Below, piece by piece: positions 5,285-54,475 of a DNA stretch of 64,000 nucleotides. The position numbers were made by a program, and so were the translations under genes. Numbering within the stretch: position 1 is the first letter of the stretch; the number at the start of each line of letters is the position of its first letter. The stretch comes from Escherichia coli (GTDB taxonomy: Bacteria > Pseudomonadota > Gammaproteobacteria > Enterobacterales > Enterobacteriaceae). The notes below the pieces were generated by a model, which was not told the origin of the DNA, searched no databases, and saw nothing but the letters and a program-made list of their open reading frames with translations. The stretch lies in NCBI RefSeq assembly GCF_003790525.1, contig NZ_CP033635.1, one strand, 5' to 3'.

Positions 5285-5752
5285 ATGATTAAACGCGTAT
5301 TGGTTGTTTCAATGGTAGGTCTGTCTCTTGTCGGTTGTGTTAATAACGACACCCTGTCAGGGGATGTTTATACCGCTTCTGAAGCGAAACAAGTACAGAA
5401 TGTCAGCTATGGCACCATCGTTAACGTACGTCCGGTACAGATTCAGGGCGGTGATGATTCCAACGTTATCGGCGCAATTGGCGGTGCTGTTCTTGGTGGT
5501 TTCCTGGGAAATACTGTTGGCGGCGGAACCGGGCGTTCTCTGGCTACTGCAGCAGGCGCTGTTGCAGGTGGCGTAGCCGGTCAGGGCGTACAGAGTGCAA
5601 TGAACAAAACGCAGGGTGTCGAGCTGGAAATTCGTAAAGACGATGGTAATACCATCATGGTGGTACAGAAACAAGGCAACACTCGTTTCTCTCCGGGCCA
5701 ACGTGTCGTACTGGCCAGCAATGGCAGTCAGGTGACCGTTTCCCCGCGCTAA
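5285..5752 (+). CDS. slyB: outer membrane lipoprotein SlyB
   Basis: 155 aa ORF with lipoprotein signal (LVGC) and glycine-zipper-rich body; recognised as SlyB. Confidence 0.93.
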   Translation: MIKRVLVVSMVGLSLVGCVNNDTLSGDVYTASEAKQVQNVSYGTIVNVRPVQIQGGDDSNVIGAIGGAVLGGFLGNTVGGGTGRSLATAAGAVAGGVAGQGVQSAMNKTQGVELEIRKDDGNTIMVVQKQGNTRFSPGQRVVLASNGSQVTVSPR

Positions 5753-5760
5753 ATAAGTTT

Positions 5761-5788
5761 GCGTGTGGTCAGGTTACTGACCACACGC
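5761..5788. terminator. bidirectional hairpin between convergent slyB and slyA
   Basis: perfect 12-bp stem gcgtgtggtcag / ctgaccacacgc with 4-nt loop, 9 nt after slyB stop and 11 nt before slyA stop. Confidence 0.65.
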
Positions 5789-5798
5789 CCCCTTCATT

Positions 5799-6233
5799 TC
5801 ACCCTTTGGCCTGTAACTCAATGATATTATGCTCAAGTTTTGCGATGAGCTTAATCAGTTGTTCCAGTTCCTCTGCGGAGATGCCATGTAAAATTTCCGC
5901 GCGGGTTTTGTTAATAACAGCTTCCATTTCGCTGATCAGTGGCTCTGCCTTTTCCGTCAGTTTAATACGTTTAGCCCGACGATCGCTGGCACAAGTTTGA
6001 CGCGAAATTAACCCTTTTTCTTCCAGTTGGTCCAGAGTACGGACCAGTGATGGCTGCTCGATGCCAATCGCTTTTGCCAGTTGAATTTGCGACTGGTCTG
6101 GAGGTAACTGATGGATATTGTGTAACGTAACCCAATGGGTTTGTGTTAACTCCAGCGGTTTCAGGCGATGGTCTATCAGAGCACGCCATATGCGCACCAA
6201 CCGTGCCAGATCAGAACCTAGTGGCGATTCCAA
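5799..6233 (-). CDS. slyA: MarR-family transcriptional regulator SlyA
   Basis: ORF 5799..6239 (146 aa from ATG); the 144-aa form I recall for K-12 SlyA ([12 protein letters not shown]...) would start at in-frame TTG 6233. Confidence 0.88.
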
Positions 6234-6249
6234 TTTCATCTCCTTATAA

Positions 6250-6261
6250 TTAGCTTGCTAA
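6250..6261. promoter_or_regulatory. SlyA-type palindrome TTAGCTTGCTAA just upstream of slyA
   Basis: 12-bp near-palindrome resembling the SlyA consensus TTAGCAAGCTAA, 11 bp upstream of the slyA ORF in the slyA/ydhI divergent region. Confidence 0.5.
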
Positions 6262-6433
6262 GATATTATGCGGCTTTTAGAATAGTGTGCAGCAATTGTA
6301 TTGCTAAAACAAATGTATTGCTGCATTTGGTTACCGTCAGACATATTTTTCAGAAATTGCGCGTAAATTTTTCGCACTTAAAGAATATTTATTAATCTAA
6401 CGCAATATATTCGGTCGTAAAGGAATCTACTTT

Positions 6434-6670
6434 GTGAAGTTTATGCTCAATGCAACAGGATTGCCCTTACAAGATCTGGTGTTCGGTGCGTCCGTCTACT
6501 TTCCTCCGTTTTTCAAAGCCTTCGCGTTTGGATTCGTCATCTGGCTTGTCGTACACCGCCTGCTTCGTGGCTGGATCTACGCTGGTGACATCTGGCATCC
6601 CTTGTTAATGGATTTATCGCTGTTTGCGATTTGCGTTTGCCTTGCCCTGGCAATACTGATTGCGTGGTAA
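6434..6670 (+). CDS. ydhI: small inner-membrane protein (DUF1656), partner of YdhJK
   Basis: 78 aa ORF from GTG 6434 ([25 protein letters not shown]...), two hydrophobic segments; recognised as YdhI. Confidence 0.85.
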
Positions 6671-6672
6671 CT

Positions 6673-7530
6673 ATGTCAATTAAAACAATTAAGTATTTCT
6701 CAACAATCATTGTAGCGGTAGTTGCGGTTCTTGCCGGATGGTGGCTGTGGAATTATTACATGCAATCTCCGTGGACACGCGACGGGAAAATACGCGCAGA
6801 ACAGGTTTCTATCACCCCTCAGGTGTCGGGACGTATTGTTGAGCTGAATATAAAAGACAACCAGCTGGTTAACGCGGGGGATCTTCTGCTCACGATCGAT
6901 AAAACGCCCTTTAAGATCGCCGAGCTGAACGCACAGGCTCAGCTGGCGAAAGCGCAATCTGACCTCGCAAAAGCCAATAACGAAGCGAATCGTCGTCGTC
7001 ATCTCTCACAAAATTTTATTTCTGCCGAAGAACTCGATACCGCTAACCTCAATGTTAAAGCGATGCAGGCCAGTGTTGATGCCGCACAGGCGACGCTGAA
7101 ACAGGCACAATGGCAACTGGCGCAAACGGAAATTCGCGCCCCGGTGAGTGGATGGGTGACTAACCTCACTACCCGCATCGGCGATTACGCTGACACAGGG
7201 AAACCGCTGTTTGCCCTTGTCGACAGCCACTCGTTTTACGTCATTGGTTATTTTGAAGAAACCAAGTTGCGCCATATCCGCGAAGGTGCACCAGCACAAA
7301 TTACCCTCTATAGTGATAACAAAACGTTACAGGGTCACGTTTCCAGTATCGGTCGGGCGATTTATGATCAGAGCGTTGAAAGTGACTCAAGCCTTATTCC
7401 GGATGTGAAACCTAACGTCCCCTGGGTTCGACTCGCCCAACGCGTTCCCGTCCGCTTTGCGCTGGATAAAGTCCCAGGCGATGTCACGCTGGTGTCGGGC
7501 ACCACCTGTAGCATTGCCGTAGGTCAATAA
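6673..7530 (+). CDS. ydhJ: HlyD/AaeA-like membrane fusion protein
   Basis: ORF 6631..7530; start placed at ATG 6673 ([18 protein letters not shown]...), 285 aa; N-terminal TM then coiled coil. Confidence 0.85.
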
Positions 7531-9542
7531 TGAACGCATCGTCATGGTCCTTGCGCAATTTGCCCTGGTTCAGGGCCACGCTGGCGCAATGGCGTTATGC
7601 GTTACGCAATACCATTGCCATGTGTCTGGCGCTGACGGTTGCCTATTATTTAAATCTGGATGAACCCTATTGGGCGATGACCTCGGCTGCCGTGGTTAGC
7701 TTTCCCACCGTGGGCGGTGTCATCAGCAAAAGCCTCGGACGCATCGCTGGCAGTTTGCTCGGAGCCATTGCGGCACTGCTTCTTGCCGGACATACACTTA
7801 ATGAGCCGTGGTTTTTTCTTTTGAGCATGGCGGCGTGGCTTGGCTTTTGTACCTGGGCCTGTGCGCACTTCACGAATAATGTCGCGTATGCATTTCAACT
7901 GGCGGGCTACACGGCTGCCATCATCGCCTTTCCGATGGTTAATATTACTGAGGCCAGCCAGCTGTGGGATATCGCTCAGGCGCGCGTTTGCGAGGTGATT
8001 GTCGGTATTTTGTGCGGCGGCATGATGATGATGATCCTGCCGAGCAATTCCGATGCTACAGCCCTTTTAACCGCATTGAAAAACATGCACGCCCGATTGC
8101 TGGAACATGCCAGTTTACTCTGGCAGCCTGAAACAACCGATGCCATTCGTGCAGCACATGAAGGGGTGATTGGGCAGATACTGACCATGAATTTGCTCCG
8201 TATCCAGGCTTTCTGGAGCCACTATCGTTTTCGCCAGCAAAACGCACGCCTTAATGCGCTGCTCCACCAGCAATTACGTATGACCAGTGTCATCTCCAGC
8301 CTGCGACGTATGTTGCTCAACTGGCCCTCACCGCCAGGTGCCACACGAGAAATTCTCGAACAGCTGCTGACGGCGCTCGCCAGTTCGCAAACAGATGTTT
8401 ACACCGTCGCACGTATTATCGCCCCGCTACGCCCGACCAACGTCGCCGACTATCGGCACGTCGCCTTCTGGCAGCGACTACGTTATTTTTGCCGACTTTA
8501 TCTGCAAAGTAGTCAGGAATTACATCGTCTGCAAAGCGGTGTAGATGATCATACCAGACTCCCACGGACATCCGGCCTGGCTCGTCATACCGATAACGCC
8601 GAAGCTATGTGGAGCGGGCTGCGTACATTTTGTACGTTGATGATGATTGGCACATGGAGTATTGCTTCGCAATGGGATGCCGGTGCCAATGCATTAACGC
8701 TGGCAGCGATTAGCTGCGTACTCTACTCCGCCGTCGCAGCTCCGTTTAAGTCGTTGTCACTGCTGATGCGTACGCTGGTGTTACTTTCGCTATTCAGCTT
8801 TGTGGTCAAATTTGGCCTGATGGTCCAGATTAGCGATCTGTGGCAATTTTTACTGTTTCTCTTTCCACTGCTGGCGACGATGCAGCTTCTTAAATTGCAG
8901 ATGCCCAAATTTGCCGCACTGTGGGGGCAACTGATTGTTTTTATGGGTTCGTTTATCGCTGTCACTAATCCCCCGGTGTATGATTTTGCTGATTTTCTTA
9001 ACGATAATCTGGCAAAAATCGTTGGCGTTGCGCTGGCGTGGTTAGCGTTCGCCATTCTGCGTCCAGGATCGGATGCTCGTAAAAGTCGCCGTCATATTCG
9101 CGCGCTGCGCCGGGATTTTGTCGATCAACTAAGCCGCCATCCATCACTGAGTGAAAGCGAATTTGAATCGCTCACTTATCATCACGTCAGTCAGTTGAGT
9201 AACAGCCAGGATGCGATGGCTCGCCGTTGGTTATTACGCTGGGGTGTAGTGCTGCTGAACTGTTCTCATGTTGTCTGGCAATTGCGCGACTGGGAATCGC
9301 GTTCCGATCCGTTATCGCGAGTACGGGATAACTGTATTTCACTGTTGCGCGGAGTGATGAGTGAGCGTGGCGTTCAGCAAAAATCACTGGCGGCCACACT
9401 TGAAGAATTACAGCGAATTTGCGACAGCCTTGCCCGTCATCATCAACCTGCCGCCCGTGAGCTGGCGGCAATTGTCTGGCGGCTGTACTGCTCGCTTTCG
9501 CAACTTGAGCAAGCACCGCCGCAAGGTACGCTGGCCTCTTAA
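7530..9542 (+). CDS. ydhK: FUSC/AaeB-family efflux permease
   Basis: 670 aa polytopic membrane ORF; start overlaps ydhJ stop; recognised as YdhK. Confidence 0.88.
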
Positions 9543-50079: not shown

Positions 50080-50110
50080 CCCTTAAGTCTGTGCGACACA
50101 GGCTTAAGGG
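50080..50110 (-). terminator. long hairpin with minus-strand U-tract; possible 3-prime end of sRNA RydB or other minus-strand transcript
   Basis: cccttaag(tctgtg-cga-cacagg)cttaaggg; on the minus strand the stem is followed by TTTTCTTATTTCT. Confidence 0.45.
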
Positions 50111-50335
50111 TTTCTACCCCATCCGGCGCTTATCTCCGGCACTCTCAGTGGCTTAGCTCTTGAAGGGGCGATAAGAATAATCTCATAAAGCTAACCCGCC
50201 GTTTTAACACAAACTGCGATTAGTATTATTTTTGAACAATATCAGGCGGGTAGATAAGCAGTATTAAGAAGGCCATCGAACCTGGACGGAGATTAATCCA
50301 GGTCGATATGGCGAACTTGCGGCATTAAGTCAGGA

Positions 50336-50524
50336 TCAATGCACGCCCAGACGCCAGGCAAAGTAGATTTCTTCTTTTAATTCAGCAGAAGAGAGAGTAA
50401 GCAGGTCAGCAAATTCAAGTTCTAGTTGTTTCAGACGTTTGAGATATTGGGCAGGTGAAAGATTGCTCTGGTCACGGCGTAAAAATTCAATGGCCAGCTG
50501 GGTGGGATCAAGTTGAGTAGACAT
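50336..50524 (-). CDS. ydiH: uncharacterised 62-aa protein
   Basis: ORF 50336..50605; start placed at ATG 50524 with GAGGA RBS (MSTQLDPTQLAIEFLRRDQSNLSPAQYLKRLKQLELEF...), 62 aa. Confidence 0.8.
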   Translation of the reverse strand: MSTQLDPTQLAIEFLRRDQSNLSPAQYLKRLKQLELEFADLLTLSSAELKEEIYFAWRLGVH

Positions 50525-50623
50525 AGCATCCTCGCTTTTAGACAAGACCTGCACAGTATACCACCGTTTACTGTGCAGATAATGACCAAAAGCAATATGC
50601 GTCACACTTTTCTGGTGACAACG

Positions 50624-51034
50624 TCACAAAATGGCGGTCGTCAATCGTGACGAACAGCACAAACGCCCTTTCTCATCGAAGATTTCAATCTGCCAGACCT
50701 GGTGACGCGAACCGAGATGCAACGGTTTGCATACGCCGCGCACCCGCCCTTCTCGTGCCGAGCGGACGTGGTTAGCATTGATTTCCAGACCAACCACCTT
50801 TTGCTCACCTTCGGTACATAAATAACCGGCAACGGAACCGATACTTTCGGCCAGCACCACAGACGCGCCTCCATGCAGCAACCCGAAAGGCTGCTTTGTC
50901 CGGGAGTCTACTGGCATTGTCGCTTCAAGGGTGTCATCACCAATATGTTCAAAGCGAATATCCAGCAACCCCACCATGTTTCCTTCACCCATAGCATTCA
51001 ATGCTTCCAGGGTGATTTTTCGTTTCCATATCAT
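50624..51034 (-). CDS. menI: hotdog-fold thioesterase (1,4-dihydroxy-2-naphthoyl-CoA hydrolase)
   Basis: 136 aa ORF MIWKRKITLEALNAMGEGNMVGLLDIRFEHIGDD...; start overlaps ydiJ stop (ATGA). Confidence 0.9.
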   Translation of the reverse strand: MIWKRKITLEALNAMGEGNMVGLLDIRFEHIGDDTLEATMPVDSRTKQPFGLLHGGASVVLAESIGSVAGYLCTEGEQKVVGLEINANHVRSAREGRVRGVCKPLHLGSRHQVWQIEIFDEKGRLCCSSRLTTAIL

Positions 51035-54000
51035 TTAATAATCTCCAGTAAAGCCTGCACAGGATGGCGTACCCCCGTGCCTTCGACCCGTTTTACCTGG
51101 CTACGGCAGGAATATCCGGTCGCCAGACAGCGATTACGCGGCAGTCGCTGCATCGCCTGATGCCAGGATAACTCATAGATCCCGAGCGAATTTTTATGGT
51201 TTTTCGCTTCATGTCCGTAAGTCCCTGCCATGCCGCAGCAACCCACGCTGACATTTTCCAGTTTCGCGCCAAAACGGGCAAATATCGCGGCCCATTGTGC
51301 TGGCGCGCCCGGCAAAGCGGTAACTTCGGTACAGTGACCAAAGAAATACCATGATTCACCGCTGACTGTAGCCACTGGCTGTGAGTCAAGTGCGCTTGCC
51401 AGCCATTCATTCGCCAGTAAGACGTTAAACTCGCCACGTTCATCGCCCAGCGCCAGTTTATATTCATCGCGATAACAAAGTACCAGCGCCGGATCGACGC
51501 CCACCATTGGCATCCCCAGCTTCGCCATACGGTTGAGGAAATCCGCCGTCTTTTTCGCCGTCTTCGCAAAACGATTAAGAAAGCCTTTGATATGCTGGGC
51601 TTTGCCATTTGGCGAAAATGGCAGTAACACAGGCTGGAAACCTAATTTTTCAACCAGACGGACAAAATCCGCCACCACTTGCGCATCGTAATAGCTGGTA
51701 AAGGGGTCCTGCACCACCAACACCGTGCGCGCTTTCTGCTCTGTATTGAGAGCTTCAAGCTGTTCCAGCGTCATATTCGCCGAGCGATGCCCCACCATTT
51801 GTTGTTGTAGCGAGGGGACTGACAGCAGTGGCAAATCAACCATGCCGATATGTTTTTCCGAGAGTTTGCGCACCAGCGGCTGGTTAATGAAGAAGTTAAA
51901 GGTTTTCGGCGCGCGTGCCATCAGCGGTGCGTAGCTCTCGACCGTAGCAACGAGGTGGTCACGAAGCGGGCGTAAATAACGGGTGTGATAGAGCTGCAGA
52001 AAACGAGAACGAAACTCCGGCACATCAATTTTGATGGGGCACTGGGTCGAACACGCTTTACAGGCCAGACAGCCCGACATAGCCTCTTTGACTTCGTGTG
52101 AGAAGTCGTATTCGCCTTTATTCGCATGCCAGCTATTGCGCGTGCGGGCAATTAACGTCCGTAAACTGACGCCGGATTCAGGCAGTTCTTGTTCCAGTTT
52201 GAGTGGGTCAACGCCGCGATCCGCCAACAAGCGCAGCCATTCACGCACCAGCGTTGCGCGCCCTTTCGGTGAATGAATCCGGTTCTGGGTGATCTTCATC
52301 GACGGACACATCGGACTACGGGCATCAAAGTTGAAGCATAAACCGTTGCCGTTACACTCCATCGCACCGCGCCACTGCTGGCGTACCGCAATGGGGATCT
52401 GCCGATCAAATGTACCGCGCTTCACCGCGTCCACTTTCATCATCGGCGCATCGAGACCTTCTGGCGGGCAAATCTTCCCTGGGTTGAGTCGGTTATGCGG
52501 GTCAAATGCCGCTTTCACTTTGCGCAGTTCTGCAAAAAGTTCCTCACCGAAAAACGCCGGGCTGTATTCAGCGCGAAAACCTTTGCCGTGCTCGCCCCAC
52601 AACAAACCACCGTATTTCGCAGTCAGCGCCACCACGTCATCAGAGATTTGCTTCATCAAAATCTCTTGTTGTGGATCGCACATATCCAGTGCCGGACGGA
52701 CGTGCAAGACACCTGCGTCGACGTGACCGAACATACCGTAGCTTAAGCCGTGGCTGTCGAGCAGCGCGCGAAATTCAGCAATATAATCGGCCAGATGTTC
52801 CGGCGGTACGCAGGTATCCTCAGCAAACGGAATTGGCTTAGCGGCACCTTTGGCATTGCCAAGCAGACCAACGGCTTTTTTGCGCATCGCATAGATACGT
52901 TCAACGCCCGCCAGTTCGCGGCACACCTGCCAGCCAATCACACCTGCCTGTTGGCTGGCAATCAGCTCATCAAGCCGCACACAGAGTGCATTAACTCGCT
53001 CGTCAATCAGCGCCTCATCATCACCAGCAAATTCCACAATGTTCAGCCCGAGCATTTCTTTGTCAGGTACATCGGTAATCAACTCGCTGACGGAATGCCA
53101 GACAATATCTTCCCGCGCCAGATTCAGCACTTTTGAGTCCACCGTCTCTACCGAAAGCGCCCGCGCCTCAACCATAAACGGCGCGTTACGCAGCGCGGAG
53201 TCAAAAGAGTCATATTTGACGTTCACCAGACGCCGCACTTTAGGCAAGCGCGTAATATCCAGCCGCGCTTCGGTAATAAAGGCCAGCGTCCCTTCTGAAC
53301 CCGTCAGAATGCGCGTCAGATCGAACTCGGTCATCTCATCGTTAAAGACATGACGCAGATCGTAACCGGTAAGAAAGCGGTTAAGTTTGGGGAAGTTGTT
53401 GATGATTAACTGGCGTTGCTGACGGCAACGTTGATAAACCGTGTTATAAATTCGCCCGATTGTGGTATTGGATTTACCCAGCGTTTCCGCCAGTTCGACG
53501 GGTAAAGGTTGCGTATCGAGAATATCGCCCCCCAACAACACCGCGCGTACGCCAAGTACGTGATCTGACGTTTTGCCATAGACCAGCGATCCCTGACCGG
53601 ATGCATCGGTATTGATCATCCCGCCGAGCGTTGCCCGGTTGCTGGTCGAAAGCTCCGGCGCAAAAAAGTAGCCGAACGGTTTCAGGTACTGATTGAGTTG
53701 GTCTTTTATCACCCCGGCCTCAACGCGCACCCAGCCCTCTGCAGGGTTAATTTCGATGATGCGGTTCATATGGCGGGACATATCAACAATAATCCCCTGG
53801 TTGAGCGCCTGACCGTTAGTGCCGGTGCCGCCGCCGCGGGGGGTAAAGATCAACGATGAATAGCGTTCCTGCGCGGCAAGACGGGCGATCAGCGCTACAT
53901 CTGCGGTTGAACGCGGAAATACCACCGCATCGGGGAGAAGTTGGTAAATACTGTTGTCGGTCGACATTGTCAGACGATCGGCATAACTTGTCGCCGTATC

Positions 54001-54087
54001 GCCAGTAAAACCCTGTTGCTCCAGCTCTTGCAAAAAATTAAGCACCAATTGAACGACGCCAGGTGCCTGGGAAATCTGTGGAATCAT
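51031..54087 (-). CDS. ydiJ: large FAD-linked oxidase / Fe-S fusion protein (putative D-2-hydroxyglutarate dehydrogenase)
   Basis: ORF 51031..54159; start placed at ATG 54087 (MIPQISQAPGVVQLVLNFLQELEQQGF...), 1018 aa. Confidence 0.9.
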   Translation of the reverse strand: MIPQISQAPGVVQLVLNFLQELEQQGFTGDTATSYADRLTMSTDNSIYQLLPDAVVFPRSTADVALIARLAAQERYSSLIFTPRGGGTGTNGQALNQGIIVDMSRHMNRIIEINPAEGWVRVEAGVIKDQLNQYLKPFGYFFAPELSTSNRATLGGMINTDASGQGSLVYGKTSDHVLGVRAVLLGGDILDTQPLPVELAETLGKSNTTIGRIYNTVYQRCRQQRQLIINNFPKLNRFLTGYDLRHVFNDEMTEFDLTRILTGSEGTLAFITEARLDITRLPKVRRLVNVKYDSFDSALRNAPFMVEARALSVETVDSKVLNLAREDIVWHSVSELITDVPDKEMLGLNIVEFAGDDEALIDERVNALCVRLDELIASQQAGVIGWQVCRELAGVERIYAMRKKAVGLLGNAKGAAKPIPFAEDTCVPPEHLADYIAEFRALLDSHGLSYGMFGHVDAGVLHVRPALDMCDPQQEILMKQISDDVVALTAKYGGLLWGEHGKGFRAEYSPAFFGEELFAELRKVKAAFDPHNRLNPGKICPPEGLDAPMMKVDAVKRGTFDRQIPIAVRQQWRGAMECNGNGLCFNFDARSPMCPSMKITQNRIHSPKGRATLVREWLRLLADRGVDPLKLEQELPESGVSLRTLIARTRNSWHANKGEYDFSHEVKEAMSGCLACKACSTQCPIKIDVPEFRSRFLQLYHTRYLRPLRDHLVATVESYAPLMARAPKTFNFFINQPLVRKLSEKHIGMVDLPLLSVPSLQQQMVGHRSANMTLEQLEALNTEQKARTVLVVQDPFTSYYDAQVVADFVRLVEKLGFQPVLLPFSPNGKAQHIKGFLNRFAKTAKKTADFLNRMAKLGMPMVGVDPALVLCYRDEYKLALGDERGEFNVLLANEWLASALDSQPVATVSGESWYFFGHCTEVTALPGAPAQWAAIFARFGAKLENVSVGCCGMAGTYGHEAKNHKNSLGIYELSWHQAMQRLPRNRCLATGYSCRSQVKRVEGTGVRHPVQALLEIIK

Positions 54088-54475
54088 TATATTGACCCTT
54101 TCCTGCGGTCTGTGATGTAGGTCGATACACTGTTCTTTCAGGCTGCTGCAATAGCGCACTGAAAGGTGATGTTTGTTTACTCTATGGATTTCGTGTTGCA
54201 GGAAGGCGGCAAGCGAGTGAACTCCAGGAGCTTACAATAGTAAGTGACTGGGGTGAACGAACGTAGCCGCAGCACATGCAATTTGAAATACGACGAGTAA
54301 ATCGTTTGCGTGTTGCCTGAGTTGTTGTACCACATTTTTTTCTAACACGCCCATCAGAATTAAGGGCAGAATCGGCCTGTTAAAAACCGCTGAAATTGCT
54401 CATCATTATGCAGGTGAGTTTCGCGTGTTCACGTCGCGTCGACGATTTGACGCACAAAAAAGGTGAAAAGTAGTT

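Follow-up and report, generated by a model that had tools for sequence, protein, structure and literature searches.

Two probable transcription units, ydiJ-menI and ydiH, and a candidate terminator hairpin between them in Escherichia coli

The ydiJ, menI (ydiI) and ydiH genes of Escherichia coli K-12 (b1687-b1685) have been described as two units, with Shimada et al. 2014 giving ydiJ and menI as one, 'ydiJI', and ydiH as its own, and placing a site for RNA polymerase sigma-70 (RpoD) holoenzyme in the spacer between menI and ydiH. YdiJ belongs to the YdiJ/PP_4493 family of D-2-hydroxyglutarate (D-2-HG) dehydrogenases, in which a GlcD and a GlpC part are fused; the dehydrogenase function has been demonstrated for YdiJ of E. 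coli and of Pantoea ananatis (PMC9504171, PMC12297413), and the literature on YdiJ reports that both the GlcD and the GlpC-like halves are required in vivo. The short D-2-HG dehydrogenases, such as those of P. stutzeri and human (6lpn), consist of the GlcD half alone and pass their electrons to ETF, where YdiJ instead has the fused GlpC-like half. MenI has a hotdog thioesterase paralog, EntH/YbdB, which is alike in fold and length. EntH is located in the enterobactin cluster, whereas MenI sits after ydiJ.

The window analysed here, a stretch of 64,000 nucleotides, matches E. coli SMS-3-5 at 100% identity; among 5426 complete E. coli genomes, 5420 contain its ydiJ-menI-ydiH region. Genes, gene order, overlap and ydiH promoter sequence are all as in the K-12 locus, the rest of the region showing no more than insubstantial nucleotide variation at strain level. 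The ORF list and the RefSeq annotation agree with the first-pass annotation in placing three genes on the minus strand:

51031..54087, minus strand: ydiJ, D-2-hydroxyglutarate dehydrogenase, 1018 aa (ORF, RefSeq, Pfam, NCBIfam)
within YdiJ: GlcD-type FAD part at residues ~50-540, 4Fe-4S motif at 577-687, GlpC-like C-terminal half at 664-1016
50624..51034, minus strand: menI (ydiI), hotdog-fold 1,4-dihydroxy-2-naphthoyl-CoA (DHNA-CoA) thioesterase, 136 aa (ORF, RefSeq, Pfam 4HBT, NCBIfam)
50336..50524, minus strand: ydiH, 62-aa protein of the YdiH family, PF15930 (Pfam, RefSeq)

All three gene identities are clear. YdiJ scores 1725 bits against the NCBIfam equivalog NF049975 (cut-off 1350) with residues 1-1016 covered, which makes it a YdiJ-type protein, and its Pfam matches are FAD_binding_4, FAD-oxidase_C and Fer4_8; a GlpC match covers residues 664-1016. 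The protein matches the YdiJ/PP_4493 family over its full length and, judged by sequence, is the E. coli orthologue of the published D-2-HG-oxidising enzyme. The 1018 aa are counted from the ATG at 54087; a GTG at 54159 opens the mechanical ORF. MenI passes the NCBIfam equivalog PRK10293 (312 bits, cut-off 226) and fails the EntH model PRK10254 (196 bits, cut-off 237). YdiH reaches 146.5 bits against PF15930 (cut-off 27; E = 2.5e-43), with its residues 1-62 on profile positions 1-62.

The junction between ydiJ and menI contains two elements:

51031..51034, minus strand: ATGA, 4-nt overlap of the menI start with the ydiJ TGA stop (direct reading)
51043..51046, minus strand: GGAG, Shine-Dalgarno-like core for menI, within the end of ydiJ and 8 nt before the ATG (sequence)

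The plus-strand TCAT at 51031..51034 reads ATGA on the minus strand, with the menI ATG at 51034..51032 and the ydiJ TGA at 51033..51031, so that the overlap noted in the first pass is real and the upstream stop overlaps the downstream start on one strand, as in a coupled pair. Overlaps of this 4-nt ATGA type are very common in bacterial operons, and the presence of one here is accordingly unsurprising. It was kept in all 53 scorable Enterobacteriaceae species (52 ATGA, 1 TTGA) of a set drawn from a genome-collection scan with ydiH; this conservation indicates that the arrangement is maintained and lends good support to a ydiJ-menI bicistron. With the listing of 'ydiJI' as one unit, ydiJ and menI almost certainly form one operon. 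The sequence CTGGAGAT is conserved at every ydiJ-menI junction aligned, where the ydiJ codons L-E-I place a constraint of their own on it. Ribosomes terminating at the ydiJ TGA would already sit on the menI ATG (AAATGA), and, given the GGAG 8 nt upstream, two routes to menI translation would be available, re-initiation and direct initiation; we infer from this junction that the two genes are probably coupled in translation. The GGAG would also permit initiation at menI independent of ydiJ translation.

The far side of menI differs from its first description, in which the end of ydiH was put 18 bp upstream of menI. Read along the coding strand, ydiH lies downstream of menI, and 18 bp is the distance from the menI stop (50624) to a GTG at 50605, the first codon of the longest ORF (89 aa). 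The 62-aa ydiH starts at the ATG at 50524, which leaves a true spacer of 99 nt. The Pfam YdiH model, of 62 positions, aligns to the whole short form (residues 1-62) and to residues 28-89 of the 89-aa ORF, and the mapped ydiH transcription start site (TSS, 50548) is downstream of the GTG. The 18-bp gap is an artefact of ORF calling. Variable columns in ydiH number 36, 21 and 60 of 62 at codon positions 1, 2 and 3, respectively. An AlphaFold2 model predicts three helices with a mean pLDDT of 91.9, and its comparison with known structures gave no informative fold match. The family is restricted to Enterobacteriaceae. Two groups of papers that match the name concern other proteins: the 'YdiH' aldo-keto reductase of PMC7884692 cannot be the 62-aa YdiH, and the 'ydiH' in papers about the Rex regulator in Staphylococcus aureus and Bacillus cereus is likewise a name collision.

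The spacer and its surroundings hold the signals for ydiH:

50525..50623, minus strand: menI-ydiH spacer, 99 nt
50548..50560, minus strand: ydiH promoter core, with the -10 box TATACT at 50560..50555, a preceding TGg (extended -10) and the TSS G at 50548
50529..50533, minus strand: GAGGA, ydiH Shine-Dalgarno sequence, invariant in alignments
50262..50312, minus strand: hairpin downstream of ydiH, with a weak U-rich tail (fold z = -3.3; scan match 50289..50273)

The ydiH TSS has been published from 5' RNA-seq and primer extension (K-12 position 1765146, minus strand, -24 to ydiH, 'tggtcattatctgcacagtaaacggtggtatactgtgcagGtct'). The identical sequence occurs in the window and puts the TSS 24 nt upstream of the ATG, at 50548; the mapped TSS and the RpoD holoenzyme site together place a promoter in the spacer. 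The -10 box of this promoter and the Shine-Dalgarno sequence are conserved in 80 of 80 species, whatever the genomic context. A consensus promoter/terminator scan gave counts at chance level (4 found vs 4.4 expected, and 5 vs 5.6). Two other candidate elements were set aside. TTGTCA-16-CATATT (50621..50594), the one relevant match of that scan and the sequence that Shimada et al. gave for ydiH, is not at the mapped TSS. A possible CRP site, the palindrome GTGAC-GTT-GTCAC located over the stop of menI (50615..50627), was dropped for its half-site spacing of 5 rather than 6 and because it is missing from Enterobacter-type sequences. At the other end of the gene, the hairpin at 50262..50312 is likely, from its sequence and place, to end the ydiH transcript; canonical terminators with a GC stem and U-tract follow ydiH at the matching place in most genera outside Escherichia.

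We propose that the locus probably comprises two minus-strand units, a bicistronic ydiJ-menI and a monocistronic ydiH with its own promoter, with a candidate terminator or insulator hairpin between them. From the first unit, YdiJ would recycle the D-2-HG made by SerA and MenI would act as the DHNA-CoA thioesterase of menaquinone synthesis; ydiH alone would be expressed from the extended -10 promoter in the spacer, with its own Shine-Dalgarno sequence and the downstream hairpin. The first-pass annotation had instead suggested one transcript for all three genes. That suggestion holds for ydiJ-menI, on one strand, with the conserved overlap and the published 'ydiJI' unit, and is not supported for ydiH as its main mode of expression. 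The common strand, the short gaps, the adjacency retained in 56 of 80 species and a scan that finds no canonical terminator with GC stem, short loop and U-tract after menI in E. coli would all fit a tricistronic mRNA, but ydiH has a mapped TSS within the spacer and is published as a separate unit. In the other 24 species ydiH keeps its promoter at another location, neither menI nor ydiJ lying within 7 kb, so that the adjacency of the three genes is not generally conserved; its neighbours there are pntAB/uspE/fnr or ycjG/mpaA, and the gene shows independent genomic mobility. Nor do the genes appear co-regulated, ydiH being up-regulated and ydiJ down-regulated across multiple stresses in one literature meta-analysis, the single source for this response. 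The menI-ydiH spacer, 77-102 nt in 54 species, reaches 372 nt in Intestinirhabdus, where an ERIC-like insertion of ~280 nt is tolerated, and a covarying hairpin separates menI from ydiH. It is thus quite unlikely that all three proteins come mainly from one ydiJ-menI-ydiH mRNA, although some read-through into ydiH may occur. As for published 3' ends, the Term-seq tables of Adams 2021 have the rydB 3' end as their sole entry in the region and none for ydiJ, menI or ydiH, and the SMRT-Cappable-seq and TERMITe supplements likewise contain no entry for these three genes.

The element between the proposed units is an inverted repeat:

50540..50586, minus strand: inverted repeat bracketing the ydiH -10 box (folding and covariation)
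50578..50569 and 50558..50549, minus strand: core arms of the repeat, CUGCACAGUA and UACUGUGCAG

In RNA reading through from menI, the predicted hairpin would stop 1 nt short of the ydiH TSS, with a U-rich tail behind it. Its fold in E. coli is -22 kcal/mol, and that of the whole menI-ydiH spacer is -49 kcal/mol (z = -5.5). Across species with ydiH behind menI the arms show compensatory and G-U changes, 84.6% of cells are paired, and covariation is 0.243 vs 0.104 in shuffles (reached by 0 of 500), in a test where related sequences may exceed shuffles even without structure. In species with ydiH elsewhere, covariation showed no excess over shuffles. The minimum free energy is -14.6 kcal/mol in menI-linked species vs -5.5 kcal/mol where ydiH lies elsewhere (Mann-Whitney p = 1e-10), a contrast that, like the one in pairing, may partly reflect lineage because the two sets of species are phylogenetically distinct. 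The loop has 14 nt in most species and 4 nt in E. coli, owing to extra inner pairs; the tail reads GUCUUGUCU in E. coli, moderately U-rich with a short and interrupted U-tract, and GUUUUGUAC in most genera. A simple consensus terminator scan of the window called no canonical terminator after menI, which the moderately U-rich E. coli tail explains.

This arrangement resembles intrinsic terminators that overlap the next promoter, in that the hairpin would close one unit only 1 nt short of where the following one starts. Its A-tract and U-tract flanks are clearest in one locus of the set (GUCAAAACCUGACCAG...CUGGUCAGGUUUUG); the long loop of most species and the interrupted E. coli U-tract set this putative terminator apart from them. 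We consider that the hairpin may be a terminator or insulator for ydiJ-menI, as its sequence and pairing suggest. In RNA coming from menI it would most likely stop or damp read-through, and it would partly mask the ydiH ribosome-binding site in whatever RNA passes, keeping the units apart.

Could the repeat instead work as DNA? A dimeric repressor of ydiH binding it as an operator would find it in a classic position, overlapping the -10 box and the TSS, and the neighbouring motif TTTGGTCAAAAA, beside the repeat, is conserved as sequence in all contexts. The arm sequences, however, change while the pairing stays, and many of the kept pairs are G-U (GU counts of 16 and 11 at two of the pairs, a UG count of 21 at a third); such pairs are asymmetric in DNA and count against an operator. 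The repeat is also missing where ydiH has other upstream neighbours, though the promoter is conserved there. We therefore regard an operator as unlikely and keep to an RNA hairpin. It is conceivable, as a tentative proposal that we hold with some doubt, that when ydiH arrived behind menI its promoter region gained this compensatorily evolving repeat, which is absent behind genes with their own terminators. The repeat would then be a compact terminator-within-promoter element: acting as RNA, it would both terminate and insulate ydiJ-menI and would mask the ribosome-binding site of ydiH in read-through RNA. YdiH, separately, would on this proposal be a small three-helix protein induced by stress, without recognisable relatives and with a role unconnected to those of the adjacent genes.

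The co-arrangement had also been taken to hint at a shared quinone-linked context of YdiJ, MenI and YdiH, which remains speculation. In its full form, YdiJ would pass D-2-HG electrons to (mena)quinone, MenI would supply the head-group precursor and YdiH would be an accessory subunit or regulator of YdiJ. YdiJ does have a GlpC-like Fe-S half, through which quinone use has been proposed in the literature, MenI is a menaquinone-pathway enzyme, and the 4-nt overlap of ydiJ with menI is strictly kept throughout this clade. Against this, the literature states the physiological electron acceptor of YdiJ as unknown, and six distant YdiJ relatives (44-58% identity) have no adjacent thioesterase; two of these six directly follow a serA-like gene, a position that suggests a tie to serine/D-2-HG metabolism and not to quinone. 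A part for YdiH also fits poorly with its unlinked position in the 24 species, with a family confined to Enterobacteriaceae where YdiJ is widespread, and with a structural model that lacks an informative fold match. A functional quinone module of this kind is highly improbable, although the pairing of ydiJ with menI, taken by itself, may have a metabolic logic.

What does the locus add to the picture of these genes? The genes, their functions (except that of YdiH) and the two-unit organisation are already known from the literature and databases, and the main gain is in annotation: the 18-bp gap is corrected, and ydiH is not to be counted in the ydiJ-menI operon, nor used for guilt by association with D-2-HG or menaquinone metabolism. 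There is a small puzzle in the presumed co-translation, in one clade, of a detoxifying dehydrogenase of the serine cycle with a thioesterase of the menaquinone pathway, a pairing that would gain interest if menaquinone were the acceptor of YdiJ. The context-specific hairpin may represent a modest case of insulation evolving after gene rearrangement.

The three genes lie on the minus strand in a region (50200..54300) that matches E. coli SMS-3-5 at 100% identity and is found, with at least 80% coverage, in 5420 of the 5426 complete E. coli genomes, flanked by sufA and the sRNA gene rydB on one side and by ydiK, RprA and ydiL on the other:

51031..54087, minus strand: ydiJ, RefSeq "D-2-hydroxyglutarate dehydrogenase YdiJ"
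50624..51034, minus strand: menI, RefSeq "1,4-dihydroxy-2-naphthoyl-CoA hydrolase"
50336..50524, minus strand: ydiH, RefSeq "YdiH family protein"
50109-50169, minus strand: sRNA gene rydB, 81.6 bits
55774-55881, plus strand: sRNA gene RprA, 118.5 bits

The sole Term-seq peak reported near the locus is the rydB 3' end, and a search for transcript ends of ydiJ, menI or ydiH returned none. Family assignments are unambiguous: YdiJ scores 1725 bits against an NCBIfam equivalog cut-off of 1350 and contains FAD_binding_4 and FAD-oxidase_C domains, a 4Fe-4S motif and a C-terminal half that resembles GlpC; MenI exceeds the MenI equivalog cut-off (312 versus 226), whereas with the model of its paralog EntH it scores 196, under the cut-off of 237; and YdiH matches PF15930 over its full length.

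The first-pass annotation proposed a single ydiJ-menI-ydiH transcript, a claim that holds for the first two genes. The plus strand reads TCAT at 51031..51034, so that on the minus strand the menI ATG (51034..51032) overlaps the ydiJ TGA (51033..51031) within AAATGA. We placed neighbour genes by tblastn around 80 species-level loci encoding a YdiH relative. menI lies upstream of ydiH in 56 of them, among others in Escherichia, Salmonella, Citrobacter, Enterobacter, Lelliottia, Leclercia, Huaxiibacter, Pseudenterobacter and Intestinirhabdus, and wherever the contig is long enough ydiJ and then divergent ydiK follow beyond menI. The overlap, as originally described, is exactly 4 nt in all 53 scorable junctions (ATGA in 52, TTGA in one), and a GGAG core stands 8 nt before the menI start codon within the conserved CTGGAGAT. 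Together with the listing of "ydiJI" as a unit by Shimada et al. (2014), these features make a bicistronic ydiJ-menI operon, possibly with termination-reinitiation coupling, a well-supported prediction; the internal GGAG would equally allow independent initiation at menI. A palindrome, GTGAC-GTT-GTCAC (50615-50627, minus strand), overlaps the end of menI at its stop codon. Escherichia, Salmonella and some Citrobacter keep it with changes in the loop, and Enterobacter-type sequences lack it.

Where does ydiH begin? The 18-bp gap to menI noted earlier is an artefact of calling the longest ORF, an 89-aa frame opening at GTG 50605. The Pfam YdiH model covers only residues 28-89 of that frame, the extra N-terminal stretch is not conserved as coding sequence in the alignment across loci, and the mapped transcription start site (TSS) lies downstream of the GTG; we therefore favour the 62-aa form starting at ATG 50524, separated from the menI stop by 99 nt. 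By its substitution pattern ydiH is a genuine protein-coding gene: among 78 distinct sequences, variable columns at codon positions 1, 2 and 3 number 36, 21 and 60 of 62.

The proposed common transcript is not supported as the main source of ydiH expression; five concurring lines of evidence point to ydiH as a separate transcription unit. Druzhinin et al. (2015) located a ydiH promoter by 5' RNA-seq, confirmed by primer extension on a plasmid construct; their sequence, tggtcattatctgcacagtaaacggtggtatactgtgcagGtct, places the TSS 24 nt before the ydiH ATG. The window is identical to it, which puts the TSS at 50548 and the extended -10 (TGn-TATACT) at 50563..50555. Shimada et al. (2014) give "ydiH" a unit to itself and show RNA polymerase sigma-70 holoenzyme bound in the spacer, and a stress-transcriptome meta-analysis reports opposite responses across stresses, ydiJ being down-regulated and ydiH up-regulated. 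For 24 of the 80 species neither menI nor ydiJ lies within 7 kb of ydiH (itself 73-79% identical). It stands between pntA-pntB and uspE-fnr in Kluyvera, Trabulsiella, Yokenella, Pseudocitrobacter and Klebsiella indica (loci L065, L071, L074, L079 and L080, ~5480-8250), with a pntB terminator just upstream; the Kosakonia copy (L058) comes after ycjG/mpaA and a 558-aa gene, and the Phytobacter one (L060) has neighbours that differ from both settings. In every context, across the 80 loci, about 75 nt upstream are kept, comprising TTTGGTCAAAAA, a GTG-n-TATACT -10 and a GAGGA Shine-Dalgarno, and in most genera a canonical GC-stem and U-tract terminator follows the gene; ydiH thus moves as a promoter-gene-terminator cassette. 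The Intestinirhabdus spacer, 372 nt long with an ERIC-like repeat, indicates that a large insertion between menI and ydiH is tolerated.

The TTTGGTCAAAAA motif (in E. coli TTTGGTCATTAT; 50581-50592, minus strand, ~33-44 nt upstream of the TSS) keeps its sequence at the corresponding place of all 80 loci. Its distance from the -10 box is too great for a normal -35, and it may serve as a regulator-binding or UP-like site.

The spacer also holds an inverted repeat that had escaped the first-pass annotation, with these core arms:

50578..50569, minus strand: 5' arm, CUGCACAGUA
50558..50549, minus strand: 3' arm, UACUGUGCAG

Folded as read-through RNA, the spacer reaches -49 kcal/mol over 126 nt (z = -5.5). 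The repeat flanks the ydiH -10 box and ends 1 base before the TSS, a U-rich tail coming next. We compared 41 sequences in which ydiH follows menI with 24 in which it lies elsewhere. In the former, 84.6% of cells in the 14-pair helix are paired, against 75.4% after shuffling and 29-44% with partners slid, C-G is exchanged for G-U and A-U numerous times, and the covariation score is 0.243 versus 0.104 shuffled (none of 500 shuffles as high); in the latter, pairing (51.8%) equals that of shuffles and covariation shows no excess over them. The minimum free energy of the 47-nt segment is -14.6 kcal/mol (z = -3.1) in the menI-linked group and -5.5 kcal/mol (z = 0.0) elsewhere (Mann-Whitney p = 1e-10), the two groups being also distinct lineages. 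Some species have the textbook A-tract/stem/U-tract shape, such as locus L040 (GUCAAAACCUGACCAG...CUGGUCAGGUUUUG); in most the loop is long, and the tail in E. coli is no more than moderately rich in U. We infer that the repeat would act on RNA arriving from menI, as a candidate terminator or insulator, and would partly mask the ydiH ribosome-binding site in that RNA; transcripts begun at 50548 would have the 3' arm alone and would thus evade the hairpin.

The divergent ydiJ/ydiK intergenic region holds a dispersed repeat (54170-54345; imperfect palindromic arms 54176-54200 and 54277-54301), of which E. coli genomes have a median of 10 copies and which occupies this site in 4253 of 5426 of them; we take it to resemble an ERIC/IRU element, and it probably accounts for sub-threshold Rfam hits to V_AS5 and Ysr49. 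In Escherichia sp. L004 and Citrobacter this intergenic region is ~175 nt shorter. In the menI-ydiH spacer of Intestinirhabdus alba (L017:6620-7005), the ERIC-like element is inserted at the ydiH -10 box, displacing the former upstream promoter half (…TATTGCTACTGGACAAAATCTGCGCGG…GTATATAC), and its end (…GTATGACGGGTATAC) recreates a TATACT hexamer beside the conserved TSS region. The ydiJ leader carries an inverted repeat, CTTTCAG...CTGAAAG (54135-54165, minus strand; 7 bp, 17-nt loop), ~50-80 nt before the ATG.

What of a quinone-linked context shared by the three genes? YdiJ is established to remove D-2-HG produced by SerA, requiring both its GlcD and GlpC halves in vivo; since the GlpC half has been suggested to reduce quinone directly and MenI serves menaquinone synthesis as its DHNA-CoA thioesterase, a link through quinone is conceivable. 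The three-gene hypothesis is speculation, and comparative data lend it no further support. YdiJ belongs to a large family (2153 cluster representatives at E <= 1e-30), and in none of six relatives inspected (44-58% identity) does a hotdog thioesterase follow; one adjoins a divergent LysR-type regulator. At L082:2667-9376, where YdiJ is 58% identical, its gene is flanked by divergent ydiK and, at the opposite end, by lpp and pykF, with menI, ydiH and the suf operon all absent in between, an order that suggests additions or losses of these genes relative to E. coli. At L083:2515-7081 (49%) and L086:1693-6105 (44%), YdiJ directly follows a serA-like gene (2-Hacid_dh and ACT) on the same strand, which fits the published SerA/YdiJ serine/D-2-HG cycle. 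YdiH, confined to Enterobacteriaceae, is a confidently predicted three-helix protein (pLDDT 91.9), for which sequence and model-fold searches gave no informative match; it is tied to YdiJ and MenI by adjacency alone, in part of its family. The interest of the locus is low, since all of it was already known except the context-specific hairpin.
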